Assembly (NCBI GenBank): GCA_963727895.1
Contig: CAVSHT010000012.1
Coordinates: forward strand, 32,001 to 96,000
From: an uncultured Methanosarcinaceae archaeon
GTDB lineage: Archaea > Halobacteriota > Methanosarcinia > Methanosarcinales > Methanosarcinaceae
Length of the DNA: 64,000 nt
Reading direction: 5' to 3'
Shown here: piece by piece, positions 3,482 to 32,108 of the stretch
How the letters are laid out: every line of letters begins with the position of its first letter
Position numbering within the stretch: position 1 is the stretch's first letter
Program-made: the position numbers and the translations under genes
Notes under the pieces: model-generated
The model's database searches: none
Seen by the model: the letters and a program-made list of their open reading frames with translations, nothing else
What the model was told of the DNA's origin: nothing

Positions 3482-4220
3482 GGCTTTGATAATTAACTAT
3501 AGTTATATACTATTAGAAAGTATATTTCTTCATGGACTGCCCCAGATGCAATAGTTCTAATCACAAAAAGAATGGTATAGTTGGCGGGCGTCAACGGTAC
3601 AAATGCTCTGATTGTGGCTATAACTATACAGTAGAGTTAAAATCAACTGCTTTTTCTGCTTCTGTAAAAAGACAGGCTTTACAACTCTATCTTGAAGGAT
3701 TGGGCTTTCGCTCAATAGGACGATTTTTAGGGGTAAGTCATGTTTCTGTCCAAAAATGGATAAAGAAATTTGGTCAAGAGTGAGAGAACCTAAAAAGTGA
3801 AAGTGAGATATCTATTGTTGAAATGGATGAGATGCACACTTACATCGGTAACAAAAAAATATTGCTGGATCTGGATTGCTGTTGATATAGCTGGGAAAAA
3901 GTTCATCAACTGCTCTTTTGGTAACAGAGGAACAGAAACTGGAAAACTACTCTGGGAAAAATTGAAGAAAAAAGAGATTGGAGAAGTGATGACAGATCAC
4001 TGGAGGGCATATGCAGAGTTTCTTCCAGAAAAGAGTCATACTCAATCCAAAGCAGAAACATTTACAGTTGAGGGATATAACAGCATATTGAGGCATTTTC
4101 TAGCAAGATTGAGACGAAAGACAAAGTGTTATAAAAAAGTCTTGAAATGCTAAAGTACTCGGTTATTATATTGATGAAATACAGAAATAAAGAGCTAGAC
4201 TATGTTTAGTTAACAATGCC
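3482..4220 (+). mobile_element. IS1-family element copy 1 (defective)
   Basis: InsA zinc ribbon CPRC..CSDC (3532-3783) plus InsB DDE fragment; GG..CC ends; 8-bp target duplication CTACTTAT at 3474-3481 and 4221-4228; internal TGA. Confidence 0.95.
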
Positions 4221-4430: not shown

Positions 4431-6058
4431 ATGTATGGAATAGCACTTGATCTGGGTACCAGCGGTTTTAGAGCCCAGCTTATCGATCTTAACACGAAAG
4501 AAACCTTAAAGACAGTCATAACAATGGGTCATCCCCTTCCTGGGGGAAATGTTATGGACCACCTGGATTTTGCAATCACAACAGGTGAGGATGTGGCTCA
4601 TGCGGTAATTATCGAAACCATCAGGAGGATGTTCCTGCGGTTCGATGTTGACCTTTCCAAAGTGGAACGGCTGGCAGTCTGTGGAAACCCTATTCAGCTT
4701 TCCCTTTTCCAGAATATCGAAATAAGGGATCTGGCTTATGCAGGAGAAAACAAGCAAAAGAAGCTTGGAGTCCAGAATGTAAAAAGAGATGCCCGTGTAT
4801 TTCCTGCTTCCGAGATTTTCGGGGAAAAAGACTTACCAAACTGTGAAGTTATTGTGCCCTCCTGCAATCAAACACGAGATTGGAGCTGACGCTCTGGCTA
4901 TGATGCTTGAAACTGATTTCCTTATCCAGTCCGAACCTTCACTTGTCACGGATTACGGGACAAATGCCGAAATGGCTCTTAAAGTCGGGGATAGGATTAT
5001 CACCGCAAGCGCGGCTGCAGGACCTGCAATTGAAGGACAGGGTATAAGCTCAGGCATGCTCGCAAGCCCGGGTGCGATCTGTGACGTAAAACCTGAAGGA
5101 CAGTACTGGAGAATTATGGTTCTTGACAGGGAAATGGAAAAACAGAATGCTTACCTTATCCATCCGGTTACAGGGGAGATAAAGAGAGTCCTACGGGTAC
5201 GAGGCAGTTGGAATCACCGGCACAGGAGTTATCTCGGCCTTTGCTCTTGCACTCAAAAGCGGGCTGATTGAAAAATCTCCTAAACTTCCGAACGGAAAGC
5301 TGATCCTGGGCCCTGGAATTGAGATCACTGAGAAAGGATGTGGAAGAAGCCGGAAAAGCTATCGGGGCAATCCGGGCTGCTCATATGACTCTGATCGTTG
5401 AATCCGGGATTAAGTACGAAGATCTGGAGTACGCATATATGTCAGGAGCCTCCGGAGCCTATGTGGACGCTGAAGATTCCCGCAGGCTCGGAGCCGCACC
5501 GGGTTATGCAAAAAAAATTGTCCAGTTCGGAAATACCTCGCTTGCGCTTGCTCGGGAACTTGTGCTTGATAAATCCAGGCTGGATGACGTAGTAACGATT
5601 GCAAAGAAAATTACTGCCGACCACCTGATGATGGCAACCAGCGATGACTTTCAACAATTTCTACCTCTGCGAACTTTCCTACTGGACCCAGGGCATGCCT
5701 CTTGAGATGTACGACCAGATGCTTGAACTCTATGGCCTGCCTCCTCCTCCCCAAAACTCTTGAACACGTAAGCATCGAAAAACGAGTCAGCAAAGACATA
5801 GAACAGGTAGGACCAGGTGGGCTTGCCATTCTCAAAGAAATAGGCATAATTCTGGAAGTCCCAGTGGAAAAGTGTATCTACTGCAAAAAATGCGTAAAAG
5901 AATGTCCTGAGTCTGCTCTTGAAATCGTAGAAATAGACGGCAAACGAATCGCAAAATACGACAGCCAGAAATGTCTCGGCACAAGCTGTCACCGCTGTGT
6001 TTCTATCTGCCCTGAAAGTGCCATCGATATAACAAAACTGAAAATTACAGCAAAATAA
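4431..6058 (+). CDS. ramA: Methylamine methyltransferase corrinoid reductive activase (about five +1 frameshifts, probably assembly errors)
   Basis: MYGIALDLGTSG ASKHA-type N-terminus, DYGTNAE, AAAGPAIEG, C-terminal 2x[4Fe-4S] motifs (CIYCKKC..CP); fragments join across single-base insertions near 4858, 5185, 5333, 5650 and 5750. Confidence 0.88.
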
Positions 6059-6440: not shown

Positions 6441-7220
6441 TTAGAGTACAGAATACAGCATTGACGCTGTTCCTATTCCCAGGGGTTCAGCTATAAGTTG
6501 CACATCATATTTTTTTCGCAGATCTTCAGAAATTGCGTAAGGAATTCCAGGGGTGGAAAGTACACAATTCTCCGAAAGTACAGCTTCAGGAATCGTATTT
6601 GCACATGGGGTTGCCTCGAAAATGGTGGAAAACTTTTTTGGAATTGCAGGGTCGAAAGGAATCATTTCAAGCTTTGAGGTAGTCTTCTTCAGAAGTTTTT
6701 CATCGGCATCATATCCATAAACCTTGAAACTTTTGTTCACAAGATGGGCTGCTCCGGGAAAACCTACCTTTCCGAGTCCAATAACAAGTACATCCTTTGA
6801 TTCGGCTATCAGGTTCCTGGAAGCAATCTCAGCATAGATTATACCTGTGCATGGCTGATTGTTGGCGATTTTTCCGTTTTTGATGTTATGTGCAAGAAAG
6901 GTGTGGTCATCAGCCATAAGGATAATTTCGGCTTCATTCTGTACAGCTTCGTAATAGCCGCTAACATCCGGCGTATCTGTAATAAAGCTGTCAAATCCAA
7001 AATACTGTGTAATTGCATTCAGAGATGCCGAAAAATTACCTATTATCCCGTTTCCTGAAGTTATAGGCACTATACCTACTTTTTCAAAACACGACAAGGT
7101 ACCGTAGAGATTTTCGCAGATTTGTTTTATATCAGATCCTGTTGCTTTCTTTACAGCAGAATCAGCTTTTTGAAGCTGTTTATTTATATTTGCCAAATCA
7201 TCGGGGGTTAAGAGTGCCAT
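6441..7220 (-). CDS. pylD: Pyrrolysine synthase (3-methylornithyl-N6-lysine dehydrogenase)
   Basis: 259 aa; MALLTPDDL start, MADD motif, Rossmann GLGKVG; last gene of the pyl operon. Confidence 0.96.
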   Translation of the reverse strand: MALLTPDDLANINKQLQKADSAVKKATGSDIKQICENLYGTLSCFEKVGIVPITSGNGIIGNFSASLNAITQYFGFDSFITDTPDVSGYYEAVQNEAEIILMADDHTFLAHNIKNGKIANNQPCTGIIYAEIASRNLIAESKDVLVIGLGKVGFPGAAHLVNKSFKVYGYDADEKLLKKTTSKLEMIPFDPAIPKKFSTIFEATPCANTIPEAVLSENCVLSTPGIPYAISEDLRKKYDVQLIAEPLGIGTASMLYSVL

Positions 7221-7299
7221 TTTATTCCTATTTCCTGTTTTTAGAAATTTTTAGTTTTTTAACCTTTTTTAATTCGTTTTCCAGCGCCTCTATTCATTC

Positions 7300-7656
7300 T
7301 TAAGACACAACTCCTAAACGATTTTTCAGAATCGAGATCCCTTTACATTTTTTTTCCTCGGCTTCTTCCTTATCTTTGCCCCAGAAAATCAGGGTAAATA
7401 CCTGTTTTTCTCCTTTGCGAAGCAATATCTCAATGCCAGGTTCTTCATAGAATTTTTCGTAGTCATCATCCTTGGAAAAAGCCAGGTTTCCCACAGGAAC
7501 AAGACCTCCATTTTTTTCGAGTATTAGGTGTTCGTAAATACAGTATTTTTCGCAGATTCCTTCTATATCAAGCCCTTTTACTTTTTCAACGGGAGAATAA
7601 GATTTTTGAAGCTGCTCATTTATATTTGCCAAATCATCTGGAGTTGAGGGTGTCAT
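7300..7656 (-). CDS. Chimeric PylD(1-36)-PylC(C-terminal 82 aa) ORF from a tandem duplication
   Basis: By-eye alignment: 23/36 identities to the PylD N-terminus and 57/82 to the PylC C-terminus; GGAG SD; upstream spacer homologous to the pylD upstream spacer. Confidence 0.85.
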   Translation of the reverse strand: MTPSTPDDLANINEQLQKSYSPVEKVKGLDIEGICEKYCIYEHLILEKNGGLVPVGNLAFSKDDDYEKFYEEPGIEILLRKGEKQVFTLIFWGKDKEEAEEKKCKGISILKNRLGVVS

Positions 7657-7729
7657 ATTATCTCCATTTTCTGCTTTTGGGCATTTTTAATTTCTTTAAT
7701 CTTTTTTAATTCGCTTTTCAGGCTTTATT

Positions 7730-8827
7730 TCATCCTTCATATAGCGCTTCGAAACGATTTTTCAGAATTGAAATTCCTTTGCTTTTATTTTTCTCGGCTT
7801 CTTCTTTATCCTTGCCCCAGAAAATCAAGGTAAATACCGGATTTTCTCCTTTGCAAAGAAAAATCTCAGTGCCGGGCTCTTCATAGAATTTCCCATAATC
7901 GTTTCCCATAGAAAGTACCTGTTCTCCTACGGGAACAAGAATTCCGTTTTCTCCGAGCATTAAGTGTTCATAAATACAATATTTATTTTCAGGAAGAGCA
8001 CTTATTTCCTCAATACCATCAGTAAAAGCGCGGAAAAGGAGTTCTATCAGGTTAATCCCTGATGAATAATAAACGGTTGTTGGGGTCTGGCTTGGAAAAC
8101 GAGCATCGATTTCGATTACTCTAAGCCCTTTTGGGCCGGATATTGCTTCTACATCCATAATTCCTTTCAAGGATAAATTTGCTGCAAGAGTATAGGATAT
8201 CTGCCTGAAGTGAGGTTCAGAAGGAAGAGGGGTAACCGTGTGGCAGTCATAGGTTTCGTCTATATGGATCAGTGTTTCTTTTACCACAGCAAAATGGTTT
8301 CCATCTCCTATAACTTCGAGAGATACCACTTCTCCTTCTACATATTCCTCGACCATCATTCCAGGTTCAAGGTCTCCAAGTTCCTTGTCATCATAGATTA
8401 TTCTGGCTCCAATACTGCTGCTTTCACAGGGAGGTTTTACAAAATAAGGTGGTTCTGAAGGTTTGTCCTGAGGAGTAGGAACTCCTATGGACTTAAAATA
8501 ATCTTTTGAACGTTTTTTGTCCCTGCTTATCCAGTAAGCTTCAAAATCAAAGAGTACCGGGCAGAAGAACTTTTCTTTTATTGAACTTAGAAATTCGATG
8601 CAGACCAGGTTTTCGTTCACAGGAAGTAACGCATCTACGCTTTTTGAGAGTTCAAGAAGTTTTTCAGGTTCTTTTATCACATCAAAACAATGAAATTCAT
8701 CCACATAATTCCGGATAAGGGCTTGCGGATTTTTATCTACCAGAACTACTCTCATTCCTGCTTTTTTAGACAGATATGCAGCTTCGAAGCCCTGGAGTTT
8801 CCCGCCTACAAGACAGATCGTCTTCAA
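7730..8827 (-). CDS. pylC: 3-methylornithine--L-lysine ligase (ATP-grasp)
   Basis: TTG start at 8827 (MKTICLVGGKLQG) after GGGGTG SD; ATP-grasp motifs VKPPCESSS and EIDARFPSQTP. Confidence 0.95.
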   Translation of the reverse strand: MKTICLVGGKLQGFEAAYLSKKAGMRVVLVDKNPQALIRNYVDEFHCFDVIKEPEKLLELSKSVDALLPVNENLVCIEFLSSIKEKFFCPVLFDFEAYWISRDKKRSKDYFKSIGVPTPQDKPSEPPYFVKPPCESSSIGARIIYDDKELGDLEPGMMVEEYVEGEVVSLEVIGDGNHFAVVKETLIHIDETYDCHTVTPLPSEPHFRQISYTLAANLSLKGIMDVEAISGPKGLRVIEIDARFPSQTPTTVYYSSGINLIELLFRAFTDGIEEISALPENKYCIYEHLMLGENGILVPVGEQVLSMGNDYGKFYEEPGTEIFLCKGENPVFTLIFWGKDKEEAEKNKSKGISILKNRFEALYEG

Positions 8828-8828
8828 G

Positions 8829-9880
8829 CTAGCACCCCAAAACTGCCTCAAAGTCAGCCTGCCTGGCAGGCTCCATACCCATAGTCTCAAGCCTTTGGAT
8901 CACACTTTTTATATCCCTGTCTCGTTCTTCAAGGTCGCGGTCATAGTTTGCAACACCTTCCAGTTGAGAATCGGGGGAAGAATCGAAGTAACAATATTTG
9001 CCCCTGCATTTAGGCGATGAACCATTCCATCAATGCCTTCAAGGTCAAGGGATGCAGGTATAAGGCGTTTAGGGAACATTAACCTGAGAACCGAGATAAT
9101 TTTCAGTTCCGAGAGATTTGATTTCTCTCTGAAATTCTCAAGAGGGGTTCCTTCCTGGGGTAAAAAGGTCATAACTCTGACCATATCTGGGTCATTTGAT
9201 TTCATACCTCTCAAGGACAGAATGGTAGACTCGATATCGTTTCCAACACCTGTAAGAATCCCATCTTCTACACAATATCCCTGTTTTTTAGCAAAAAGGC
9301 GTGCATTGACACGTCCATCGAATGACTGTCCAACTCTTAGTTTCCTGTAGAGGTCAGTGTCATAAGTTTCTTGATAAAGAGCCAGGAAATTTGCTCCTTT
9401 TTCTTTAGCTTTAATAAGAGTAGCATTATCCATTACGCCTGGAGAAATCATTATGGGAAGCCCAAGTTCTTCTTTTACTATCTGGACAAGTTCAACGAAC
9501 CTGTTTGGATCTTCATAATAATAGGGATCTTCTCCCATGGTCAGATCAACCATATGAAAACCTGCTCCTTTCAAGGTTTTGCAGGTTTCTTTTATTTCTT
9601 CTGTGGTTAGACGATAGCGATTGATTTCGTTTCCACAGTTATAATAACAAAAAGAACATTGATTTTTACAGTAAGTGGAGAAATAGATGAAACAATTGAG
9701 AAATACTCTGTTTCCAAAATAGTGATCTCTTACTTTTCGCGCTGCAGAGTAAAGTTTTTTCAGATATTCTTCGGATTCAAGGGAGAGAAGCATCCTCAGG
9801 TCGTCGTCAGATAGTTGATAACCTTGAATTATTCTTTCCCCTAACATGTCAAACTCTTCAAGTGCCATTTTTTGAACCAA
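8829..9880 (-). CDS. pylB: Radical SAM methylornithine synthase (one frameshift at G-run 8973-8977; ends at TAG)
   Basis: CKNQCSFC motif; restoring one base gives ...PPDSQLEGVANYDR...QADFEAVLGC then TAG at 8831-8829. Confidence 0.93.
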
Positions 9881-10188: not shown

Positions 10189-11521
<1,333 letters not shown>

Positions 11522-11697: not shown

Positions 11698-11769
11698 TGG
11701 CGGAAACCCCGGGAATCTAACCCGGCTGAACGGATTTAGAGTCCATTCGATCTACATGATCAGGTTCCC
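11698..11769 (-). tRNA. pylT: tRNA-Pyl (anticodon CUA), CCA encoded
   Basis: 72 nt GGGAACCTGATCATGTAGATCGAATGGACTCTAAATCCGTTCAGCCGGGTTAGATTCCCGGGGTTTCCGCCA upstream of pylS. Confidence 0.98.
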
Positions 11770-30722: not shown

Positions 30723-32108
30723 TTACTGTTTAGAGACTTTAATGTATCCAGACACTGTTTTAGTGTTACTTCCCGCAGCGTTCTTTACTGTTAAACTGAC
30801 AGTGTATTTTCCTGCTTTACTGTATGTGTGTGAAGGACTCTTAGATGTTGAATATGCTCCATCTCCAAAACTCCATTTCCATAAAGTTGGTGATCCTGTA
30901 CTTTTGTCAGTAAATTTCACTTTGAGAGGGGCTTTTCCTGAGGTTGGAGATGCCGAAAATGCAGCAACTGGAGAATAAACCAGGGTACCCATGTAAATAT
31001 CCGAGTTTCCATTGCGCATATCTGTCCACACTATCCTGTCACCGTAGATATCTGGATAGTACTGATTTGATTTATCGGTAGTGTGACTTTCTTGACCAGT
31101 AGCAAGATCATACACATAGATATCCAAGTTTCCATTGCGATCATCATCCCACACGATCCTATTTCCATAGATTGCAGGATAATATGAATCTGATGGATTG
31201 GTAGTTATCCTCTTTTCCTTTTTAGTGGAAAGATCATACATGTAAATATCCGAGTTTCCATTGCGATCATCCTGCCACACTATCCTGTTACCGTAGATTG
31301 CAGGAGACTGCTGATTGGAGTCATTGGTGGTTATCCTCTGTTCCTTTTTAGTGGAAAGATCGTACATGTAGATACCTCCATTTCCATTGCGCCAGTCTTC
31401 CCACACAATATAGTTACCATAAATATCAGGAGAATAATGATCATCTGATCCGTCGGTGGTGATCTGAGTTTCCTTTTTAGTGGAAAGGTTGTACTCATAA
31501 ATATTGTACACATCGGAGTCTGGACCGTAGGGAGAACCTGTCCAGACAATCTTGTCACCGTAAATTGCAGGAGTGTATGCTGATCCCGTTGTAGTTATCT
31601 GAGTTTGTTTTTTAGTGGAGAGATCTTGCAGATAAATATCACTACCTACATTGCGCTCATCTGCCCACACTACTCTGTTATTGTAGATATCTGGAGAATA
31701 CTGAGCTGATTTGTTGGTAGTAGAAATTTCCTTTTTAGTAGAGAGGTCATATATGTAGACATCCCAGTTTCCATTACGGAGGTCTGACCACGCAATCTTG
31801 TTATTAGAAATAACAGGGCTCCACTGATCAGCTGAATTGATTGTAATTCGGGTTTCAGTGATCTTGAGAGCGGCAGGTTGTATAGATTCTGAACCAACAT
31901 TTACTCCAGTATCGGGCAGAACCTGGTCATCTGATGGATCACCTGCTCCAGTGGTGATCCCCGGTGGGGTGGTGGTGATGTTATCATGTGTTGGTATGTA
32001 TGGAAGTAGTGGTATGAGTGCTGATGCCGTAGATGATACAAAAATCAAAAATAAAATCATAATCGTTGAAGCTAAAGCTATTGAATACGCTTTCTCTCTC
32101 TTTTTCAT
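30723..32108 (-). CDS. Cell-surface protein with Methanosarcina-type beta-propeller repeats and a PKD domain
   Basis: Signal peptide; about seven P(A/D)IYGNRIVWxDxRNGNxDIY repeats; C-terminal PLKVKFTD..WSFGDG..YTVSLTV. Confidence 0.92.
   Translation of the reverse strand: MKKREKAYSIALASTIMILFLIFVSSTASALIPLLPYIPTHDNITTTPPGITTGAGDPSDDQVLPDTGVNVGSESIQPAALKITETRITINSADQWSPVISNNKIAWSDLRNGNWDVYIYDLSTKKEISTTNKSAQYSPDIYNNRVVWADERNVGSDIYLQDLSTKKQTQITTTGSAYTPAIYGDKIVWTGSPYGPDSDVYNIYEYNLSTKKETQITTDGSDDHYSPDIYGNYIVWEDWRNGNGGIYMYDLSTKKEQRITTNDSNQQSPAIYGNRIVWQDDRNGNSDIYMYDLSTKKEKRITTNPSDSYYPAIYGNRIVWDDDRNGNLDIYVYDLATGQESHTTDKSNQYYPDIYGDRIVWTDMRNGNSDIYMGTLVYSPVAAFSASPTSGKAPLKVKFTDKSTGSPTLWKWSFGDGAYSTSKSPSHTYSKAGKYTVSLTVKNAAGSNTKTVSGYIKVSKQ

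Follow-up and report, generated by a model that had tools for sequence, protein, structure and literature searches.

Between pylC and pylD, some members of the Methanosarcina barkeri group carry a short chimeric open reading frame (ORF) which, as far as sequence comparison can tell, is on balance probably an accessory gene of the pyl operon that codes for a protein and is under selection. The ORF lies in a 64,000-nucleotide stretch of DNA from an uncultured Methanosarcinaceae archaeon (positions 32,001 to 96,000, forward strand, of contig CAVSHT010000012.1, GenBank assembly GCA_963727895.1), which we call the window; the metagenome-assembled genome (MAG) to which the window belongs is referred to as G000. 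Labelled X here (window 7300..7656, minus strand; 118 amino acids (aa), ATG start, TAA stop), the ORF sits between pylC (7730..8827, minus strand; 365 aa; its start codon, TTG at 8827, is that of the crystallised protein) and pylD (6441..7220, minus strand; 259 aa), and joins a PylD-derived leader (D') to a PylC-derived part (C'). We show how X arose, how widely it is conserved, which selection it is under, its predicted fold and its occurrence in RNA libraries.

X is the product of a duplication within the operon. Over window positions 7111-7984, Tandem Repeats Finder reports a repeat with a period of 436, 2.0 copies, 78% matches, 1% indels and a score of 1091; the repeat blocks 7293-7548 and 7729-7984 (79%) and the blocks 7111-7270 and 7547-7706 (77%) are both spaced 436 apart. 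The 436-bp unit comprises the last 82 codons of pylC, the intergenic spacer and the first 36 codons of pylD. Copy B (7547..7984, minus strand) holds the pylC 3' end (those last 82 codons), the pylC-X spacer and the 5' part of X, and copy A (7111..7548, minus strand) holds the 3' part of X (the C' domain), the X-pylD spacer and the first 36 codons of pylD. The copies lie head to tail with an in-frame junction, as in a chimeric gene born by tandem segmental duplication: the ribosome-binding site of pylD, its ATG and 36 codons are fused in frame to the tail of pylC. The junction itself is a GAAAAA run (7545..7551, minus strand; TTTTTC on the plus strand) at which pylD-derived ...ICE is joined to pylC-derived KYCIYEH; both parents have GAAAAT at this point, and the Asn codon of PylC ENKYC is absent from the chimera. 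Residues 1-36 of X, from the PylD N-terminus, are identical to the window's own PylD at 23 of 36 positions, and residues 37-118, from the PylC C-terminal subdomain, are identical to its PylC at 57 of 82. A GGAG ribosome-binding motif (7662..7665, minus strand) stands 5 nucleotides (nt) upstream of the X ATG.

These results bear out an earlier note on this DNA, which had proposed from the letters alone a tandem duplication of about 440 bp (pylC 3' end, spacer and pylD 5' end), a junction at a GAAAA microhomology near 7546-7551, a retained Shine-Dalgarno (SD) motif and a 118-aa ORF with identity counts that proved exact. The same note had held that this is no simple assembly duplicate, and we concur: the two copies differ by about 21% and so cannot be a collapsed or doubled assembly, and the same arrangement recurs in independent assemblies.

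X has a narrow but consistent distribution. A six-frame search that counted stops showed that five of the 59 genus genomes have an X-like short frame, 128-139 aa long and stop-free, between pylC and pylD. This frame covers X residues 1 or 5 to 114-118, and a family-wide search returned the same five genomes among 177 Methanosarcinaceae. In all five carriers (G000, G032, G017, G025 and G005) the X ORF is intact, at 118-133 aa, and shares a junction in which (I/V)CE is followed by K(Y/C)CIYEH. Searches beyond genomes gave a similar picture. There were 15 matches among 5.8 billion proteins, 12 of them X with the same junction (63-96% identity) and three of them PylC fragments, and a degenerate DNA pattern of the junction retrieved six metagenome loci, all six open across X and one cut by the contig end. 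Across the five genomes, the 12 database proteins and the six metagenome loci, the common junction reads (I/V)CE followed by K(Y/C/H)CIYEH. Stops or frameshifts in relatives, which would have spoken against the chimera as the earlier note described it, were thus found in none of the five genomes and none of the six metagenome loci.

One carrier, G005, is a complete 4.9-Mb genome, and its PylC is identical at 363 of 363 positions to PDB 4FFL, a structure that we take to be from M. barkeri Fusaro. Its X protein is WP_155398071.1, 'hypothetical protein [Methanosarcina barkeri]', and also AKB49418.1 of M. barkeri str. Wiesmoor, where it is mis-named 'Pyrrolysine synthetase'; databases list X either as hypothetical or under a wrong name. 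As a separate observation, the genome G042 (contig C47; L035:2564-2887) contains a stand-alone 107-aa ORF that is 44% identical to X residues 32-103. This ORF lies outside any pyl cluster, between methyltransferase-like and prenyltransferase-like genes, and may be either a relic of separate origin or another free-standing copy of the C-terminal subdomain of PylC.

We placed the distribution on a tree built from the non-duplicated parts of pylC and pylD in 29 of the 30 best-matching genus genomes (G055, whose pylD is cut, was left out, and the other 29 genus genomes are also outside the tree). The five carriers fall within a 13-species clade (support 97/96) together with eight X-less species; nested within it, a group supported at 100/99 holds G025 and G005 as well as G003 and G058, two species without X. 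Taken with the single junction, this topology implies that X was gained once and then lost twice or more; the number of losses suggested by the best tree is four or five. Since at least two lineages have lost it, X is dispensable and is not needed for pyrrolysine synthesis. A single origin also appears from the breakpoint, which is the same in all carriers, and the best tree groups the X C' segments into a single clade, nested among the pylC sequences of the 13-species clade. The synonymous divergence (dS) between X and its own pylC is 0.6-0.9, similar to that between orthologues among the carriers, which places the duplication at about the base of the 13-species clade. The D' comparison for G025 and G005 was left aside, since a one-codon deletion in it was unaligned.

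The spacers left in X-less species hint at how the gene may have disappeared. The pylC-pylD spacer is 130-221 nt long in the X-less members of the clade and 27-103 nt long outside it, and in the X-less members it aligns collinearly, a 16-nt tandem array included, with the spacer that carriers have between X and pylD. Such long collinear spacers are suggestive of secondary loss of X through recombination between the repeats. At seven of eight diagnostic sites the X-less pylC 3' ends have no X-type state, and G015 alone has one, at site 179; a crossover that deleted X, if there was any, would therefore appear to lie in the last ~60 nt or in the spacer, a placement that is suggestive but not conclusive. 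The 16-nt array (AAGAAACTCAGATTTA) is itself expanded in the spacer right before pylD in most of the clade, whether or not the species has X. It reaches 6.9 copies in G017 (L005:1900-2008), occurs also in the spacers of L004, L006, L007 and the X-less relatives, and is found neither in G000 nor in the pylC-X spacer; the element may serve regulation or be prone to slippage.

To what extent X has been maintained as a protein can be judged from its substitutions. Ratios of non-synonymous to synonymous substitution rates (omega, or dN/dS) were estimated for five taxa with our own GY94/F3x4 fit and for 11 sequences (the five genomes plus six metagenome loci) with IQ-TREE under GY+F3X4. Pairwise Nei-Gojobori omega among the five X orthologues is 0.16-0.48. 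For the whole ORF, the five-sequence fit gave omega 0.44 (likelihood-ratio test statistic 19.2, p 1.2e-5) and the 11-sequence fit 0.51 (p 3e-6); for the C' part alone the values were 0.37 (p 1.5e-5) and 0.385 (p 9e-8), respectively. With five taxa, the parental segments that match X gave 0.19 for pylC and 0.16 for pylD. The C' part is thus under purifying selection about a third to a half as strong as in the parents, and an omega below 1 is one mark of a functional protein-coding gene, with a caveat over conversion tracts that is taken up below. The leader behaves differently: omega for D' was 0.77 (p 0.48) with five sequences and 1.1 (p 0.71) with 11. The dN/dS comparison that the earlier note had called for therefore divides the ORF in two, constraint being found in C' (omega 0.37-0.41) but not in the 36 PylD-derived residues, which are neutral.

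The reading frame and the start region have been conserved as well. All four gaps in the 11-sequence alignment of X are single codons, and the neutral probability of finding no nonsense codon on the five-taxon tree is about 1e-4 for the whole ORF (for the leader alone it is about 0.06, which is not significant). In the 22 nt before the X start, 16 of the 22 spacer columns are invariant, compared with 25 of 61 further upstream. The ribosome-binding motif reads GGAGAT in five of five species for X and GGCGAT in four of five for pylD.

Besides being conserved, C' has acquired states of its own. The position of PylC E293 is Lys in 15 of 15 X sequences and Glu in 30 of 30 PylC sequences, and the position of PylC C325 is never Cys in X. 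Further X-specific changes are Phe336 to Ser, Met307 to Lys or Thr, and Phe359 to Leu. The X domain is also more hydrophilic than the corresponding PylC segment (grand average of hydropathy -0.48 versus -0.23), a difference for which, the sequences being related, a p-value is not independent evidence.

The predicted product retains one subdomain of PylC and none of the catalytic machinery of either parent. PylC, the 3-methylornithine--L-lysine ligase of the ATP-grasp type (PDB 4FFL), is homologous over residues 282-363 to X residues 37-118 (phmmer E 1.2e-30 to 4FFL). Against the NCBIfam PylC model (TIGR03909; 374 positions, cut-off 248.3), X reaches 70.7 bits, with a match confined to profile positions 268-374, as against 548.7 bits for the window's pylC. 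No Pfam family was found in X at E <= 0.01, whereas PF21360 (PylC-like_N) and PF02655 (ATP-grasp_3) are both found in the window's PylC. Unlike PylC, X has neither the N-terminal nor the central ATP-grasp domain, nor the EIDAR metal-binding motif, and it carries the fixed substitutions described above. Because it is without the ATP-grasp nucleotide-binding domains, X cannot be a ligase. The positions S177, E179, D233 and T256, which the portion of a 2024 review available to us names as belonging to the PylC active site, all lie outside the duplicated part. As for PylD, the pyrrolysine synthase (PDB 4J43), X takes from the 5' end of its gene residues 1-36, the start codon and the upstream region (E 3.7e-8 to 4J43). 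X gave no Pfam or NCBIfam PylD match (TIGR03911, PF21455) and has neither PylD_N nor a Rossmann domain; it cannot be a dehydrogenase either.

In structure prediction with AlphaFold2 (15-row alignment), X residues 38-114 form five strands and a C-terminal helix, in blocks with a predicted local distance difference test score (pLDDT) of 64-88, and residues 1-30, with pLDDT below 50, are predicted to be disordered. Consistent with its ancestry, the model matches the C-terminal part of the PylC crystal structure: the best Foldseek matches were PylC 4ffm and 4ffl (E 3e-7, TM-score normalised to the query (TMq) 0.6, root-mean-square deviation 2.4 Å), and Foldseek returned nothing besides PylC below E 0.07. 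A role through PylD-like contacts is unlikely, given that the D' leader is neutral and predicted to be disordered. We also predicted a complex of PylC (30-row alignment) with X residues 30-118; the interaction score ipSAE (interaction prediction score from aligned errors) was 0.00 in both runs, made without controls, and speaks neither for nor against binding.

RNA data add to this picture in part. In two studies of a single cultured organism, RNA-seq contigs span the G005 locus (L007) from pylC through X to pylD, with no differences. For X-bearing strains, our searches turned up neither Ribo-seq data nor a proteome. In the raw reads of runs X22 and X23, which come from another strain that is 95-99% alike, there was no coverage over the X region. 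The reads of X23 cover pylC and pylD, with essentially no depth over X and its spacers (L007:1333-2220); the gap in these two runs fits a strain that bears the same species label but has no X, and is uninformative on expression.

Several of these results weigh against the view that X is a selected, protein-coding gene. First, X is missing from eight of the 13 species of its own clade, with at least two losses. Second, the N-terminal third shows no amino-acid constraint (omega 0.77-1.1, not significant). Third, the clade of X C' segments is only moderately supported (66/82; 67% of bootstraps), and the mean pLDDT of the X model is only 67.6. Fourth, the greater hydrophilicity of X could also come from drift. 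Fifth, transcription is expected for any sequence that lies between pylC and pylD, and contigs in an RNA library do not prove transcription and say nothing on translation. Finally, short tracts of gene conversion with pylC (in G000 and G032) import parental states that have already been filtered by selection, and so bias omega downward.

This last point leads to the strongest of the alternatives, which we consider possible though unlikely: that X is a functionless relic of a duplication that has yet to collapse in some lineages, its frame and constraint being kept passively by conversion from pylC and pylD, to which weak selection against truncated, misfolding products may add. The loss of X in eight of 13 clade members speaks for this, as do the neutral leader, whose stop-free state is not significant (about 0.06), and the branches of X in the C' segment tree, which are longer than the parental ones. 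Conversion has, moreover, left its marks. In the window, a probable conversion tract (7318..7338, minus strand) has as its partner the pylC 3' end at 7754-7774, with GISILKNR in both copies, in G000 only; consistent with this, the conversion-type sites of the G000 pairs, as classified by quartet site patterns, cluster at C' nt 211-231. In G032 (L004), the pylC 3' end has X-type nucleotides at three of eight diagnostic sites, giving LSK and ISW, and these X-type states indicate that conversion also runs from X into the enzyme gene.

Other observations speak against the relic explanation. In the six pairs among the four non-G000 carriers, orthology-type sites (10-38) outnumber conversion-type sites (0-5), and only the four pairs with G000 are mixed (7-10 orthology-type against 6-10 conversion-type). 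With the conversion tract removed, omega for C' is still 0.41 (p 7e-4). The X-specific states are fixed in all 15 variants, and frequent conversion would erase them. The GGAG of X likewise stays distinct from the GGCG of pylD, and a paralogue dS of 0.6-0.9 amounts to long independent evolution.

A second alternative places selection on the operon and not on the protein: translation of X would provide ribosome cover between pylC and pylD, for mRNA stability or for pylD expression, and the peptide would be functionless. X does lie directly upstream of pylD in one transcription unit, and its frame and SD motif are conserved while the amino acids of the leader are free to vary. Yet this explanation predicts an omega near 1 over the whole ORF, which does not agree with the 0.385 (p 9e-8) of C'. 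Untranslated spacers are, furthermore, tolerated at this place (X and pylD are 79-198 nt apart, and X-less relatives have a spacer of 130-221 nt), and canonical operons need nothing between pylC and pylD. We therefore regard it as quite improbable, and the related suggestion in the earlier note, that X is a relic kept open to avoid polarity on pylD, fails to account for the amino-acid constraint on C'. As for an assembly or annotation artefact of the G000 MAG, its likelihood is negligible: single-base frameshifts in pylS, pylB and an upstream gene and a shattered mtbB copy at a contig end would lend it some colour, but the repeat copies are only 78% alike, and the junction is real by the evidence of four other genomes (one complete), six metagenome contigs, NCBI protein records and RNA-seq contigs, all of which have the same structure.

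If X is, as we favour, a selected accessory gene, its history reads as follows. One tandem duplication of the 436-bp unit in the ancestor of the 13-species clade fused the start region of pylD in frame to the tail of pylC, giving a product that is predicted to be non-catalytic, namely a free-standing PylC C-terminal beta-sheet-plus-helix subdomain behind a disordered leader. The job of the leader would be translation initiation, so that only its reading frame is kept, and selection acts on the C' domain, whose own fixed substitutions and greater hydrophilicity are as expected for a domain newly exposed on its own. X would be translated and would work by way of surfaces like those of PylC; the likeliest mode is an association with PylC, or with ligands of PylC, that modulates the ligase step of pyrrolysine supply. 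We advance this mechanism of a PylC modulator tentatively, as it is on the whole doubtful. In its specific form, in which X is a built-in modulator whose subdomain binds PylC, or the substrate or product of PylC, and tunes the ligase step, it is no more certain. The role that the earlier note had suggested, as a non-catalytic partner or inhibitor of PylC/PylD oligomers, gained no support from the analysis, and neither the losses of X nor its conversion tracts with pylC figured in that note.

Known systems offer partial parallels. Domain-only paralogues that act as dominant-negative 'microproteins' are a concept from the eukaryotic literature, and X would resemble them, by analogy only, as a truncated paralogue that keeps one interaction-competent domain of a larger protein. 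Small proteins of Methanosarcina mazei (sP26, which acts with glutamine synthetase, and others that bind Mtr) are, in the portions of the reports available to us, similar to X in being small, in lying beside or acting on metabolic enzymes and in coming from the same genus; unlike X, they are not domain copies of their targets, and a functional analogy is only plausible. Lineage-specific pyl duplications, including an extra PylC, are described for Methanomassiliicoccus luminyensis in the accessible part of Borrel et al. (2014; PMC3941956). These copies are, as far as that part of the account goes, whole genes or the whole cluster, and not, as in X, an in-operon partial tandem duplication that makes a chimeric frame.

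The remainder of the pyl cluster in the window lies on the minus strand upstream of pylC. It consists of pylT, for tRNA-Pyl with anticodon CTA (11698..11769, minus strand), pylS (10189..11461, minus strand) and pylB (8829..9880, minus strand), of which the last two are interrupted. A single extra T near 10606 (CCAtGACCC, window 10596-10612) splits pylS into frames of 286 aa and 154 aa, which cover the NCBIfam PylRS profile in two pieces (positions 1-288 and 288-425); the split may be a real pseudogene or an assembly indel. In pylB, one base is missing near 8968-8975: compared with G017 and G005 the gene is one G short between ILPP and DSQLEG (window 8960-8980), which puts its last ~45 codons out of frame. 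The true tail of pylB ends in an amber TAG (8831-8829), one base ahead of the TTG start of pylC (8825-8831). A further gene, at 4431-5705, is distributed over three frames. By reading of the translations, window 4431-6058 holds an ASKHA-type gene resembling a corrinoid-activation enzyme (frames of 152, 160 and 128 aa) followed by a 4Fe-4S ferredoxin-like ORF, and two ORFs upstream, in window 3532-4153, resemble an IS1-type transposase.

Elsewhere in G000, three housekeeping genes and four pyrrolysine-dependent methylamine methyltransferase genes are intact. On contig C9 there is an intact copy of mtbB with one in-frame TAG, and a second copy at the end of contig C10 (C10:1-1337) has several stops and frame changes. 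This shattered copy points to local assembly errors in the G000 MAG, and the frameshifts in pylS, pylB and the 4431-5705 gene may reflect either assembly errors or recent decay. Given the single-base frameshifts in the assembly of the window, the open X frame of G000 alone is weak evidence, and the case for X rests on its relatives.

X appears, from the sequences at hand, to be a new small family derived from PylC and to mark an altered pyl operon, although its birth was by a well-known kind of event. We found no mention of a gene between pylC and pylD in the literature as far as it was accessible to us, including the available portions of PMC3941956, PMC2933860 and PMC11467909, and no literature mention of the locus tags Mbar_A0835-0837. 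Descriptions of the pyl cluster usually present it as a fixed cassette of five genes, pylTSBCD, within which X is a sixth conserved frame. In the part of a 2024 review available to us, pyl gene order is said to have been initially believed stereotyped in archaea. X occurs, moreover, in the very species group that lies behind the PylC and PylD crystal structures.

What X means for the biology of these archaea depends on whether the protein is made. Should it turn out to be functionless, X would be a well-documented, long-lived relic of modest interest. Whatever its function, it offers a clean, datable case of an archaeal operon gaining a gene through partial tandem duplication: the translation start came from one parent and a foldable domain from the other, and the gene was lost repeatedly thereafter. 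If the protein is made, it becomes a candidate for regulating or assisting the synthesis of pyrrolysine, whose supply and demand are, to judge from the portions of the recent literature available to us, currently under active study, and it would be relevant to heterologous pylBCD constructs from X-bearing strains. And if X does modulate PylC, M. barkeri-type strains would have an extra control of free pyrrolysine, and hence of UAG read-through, exerted by a new regulatory protein made from parts of two enzymes inside the very operon that it regulates.

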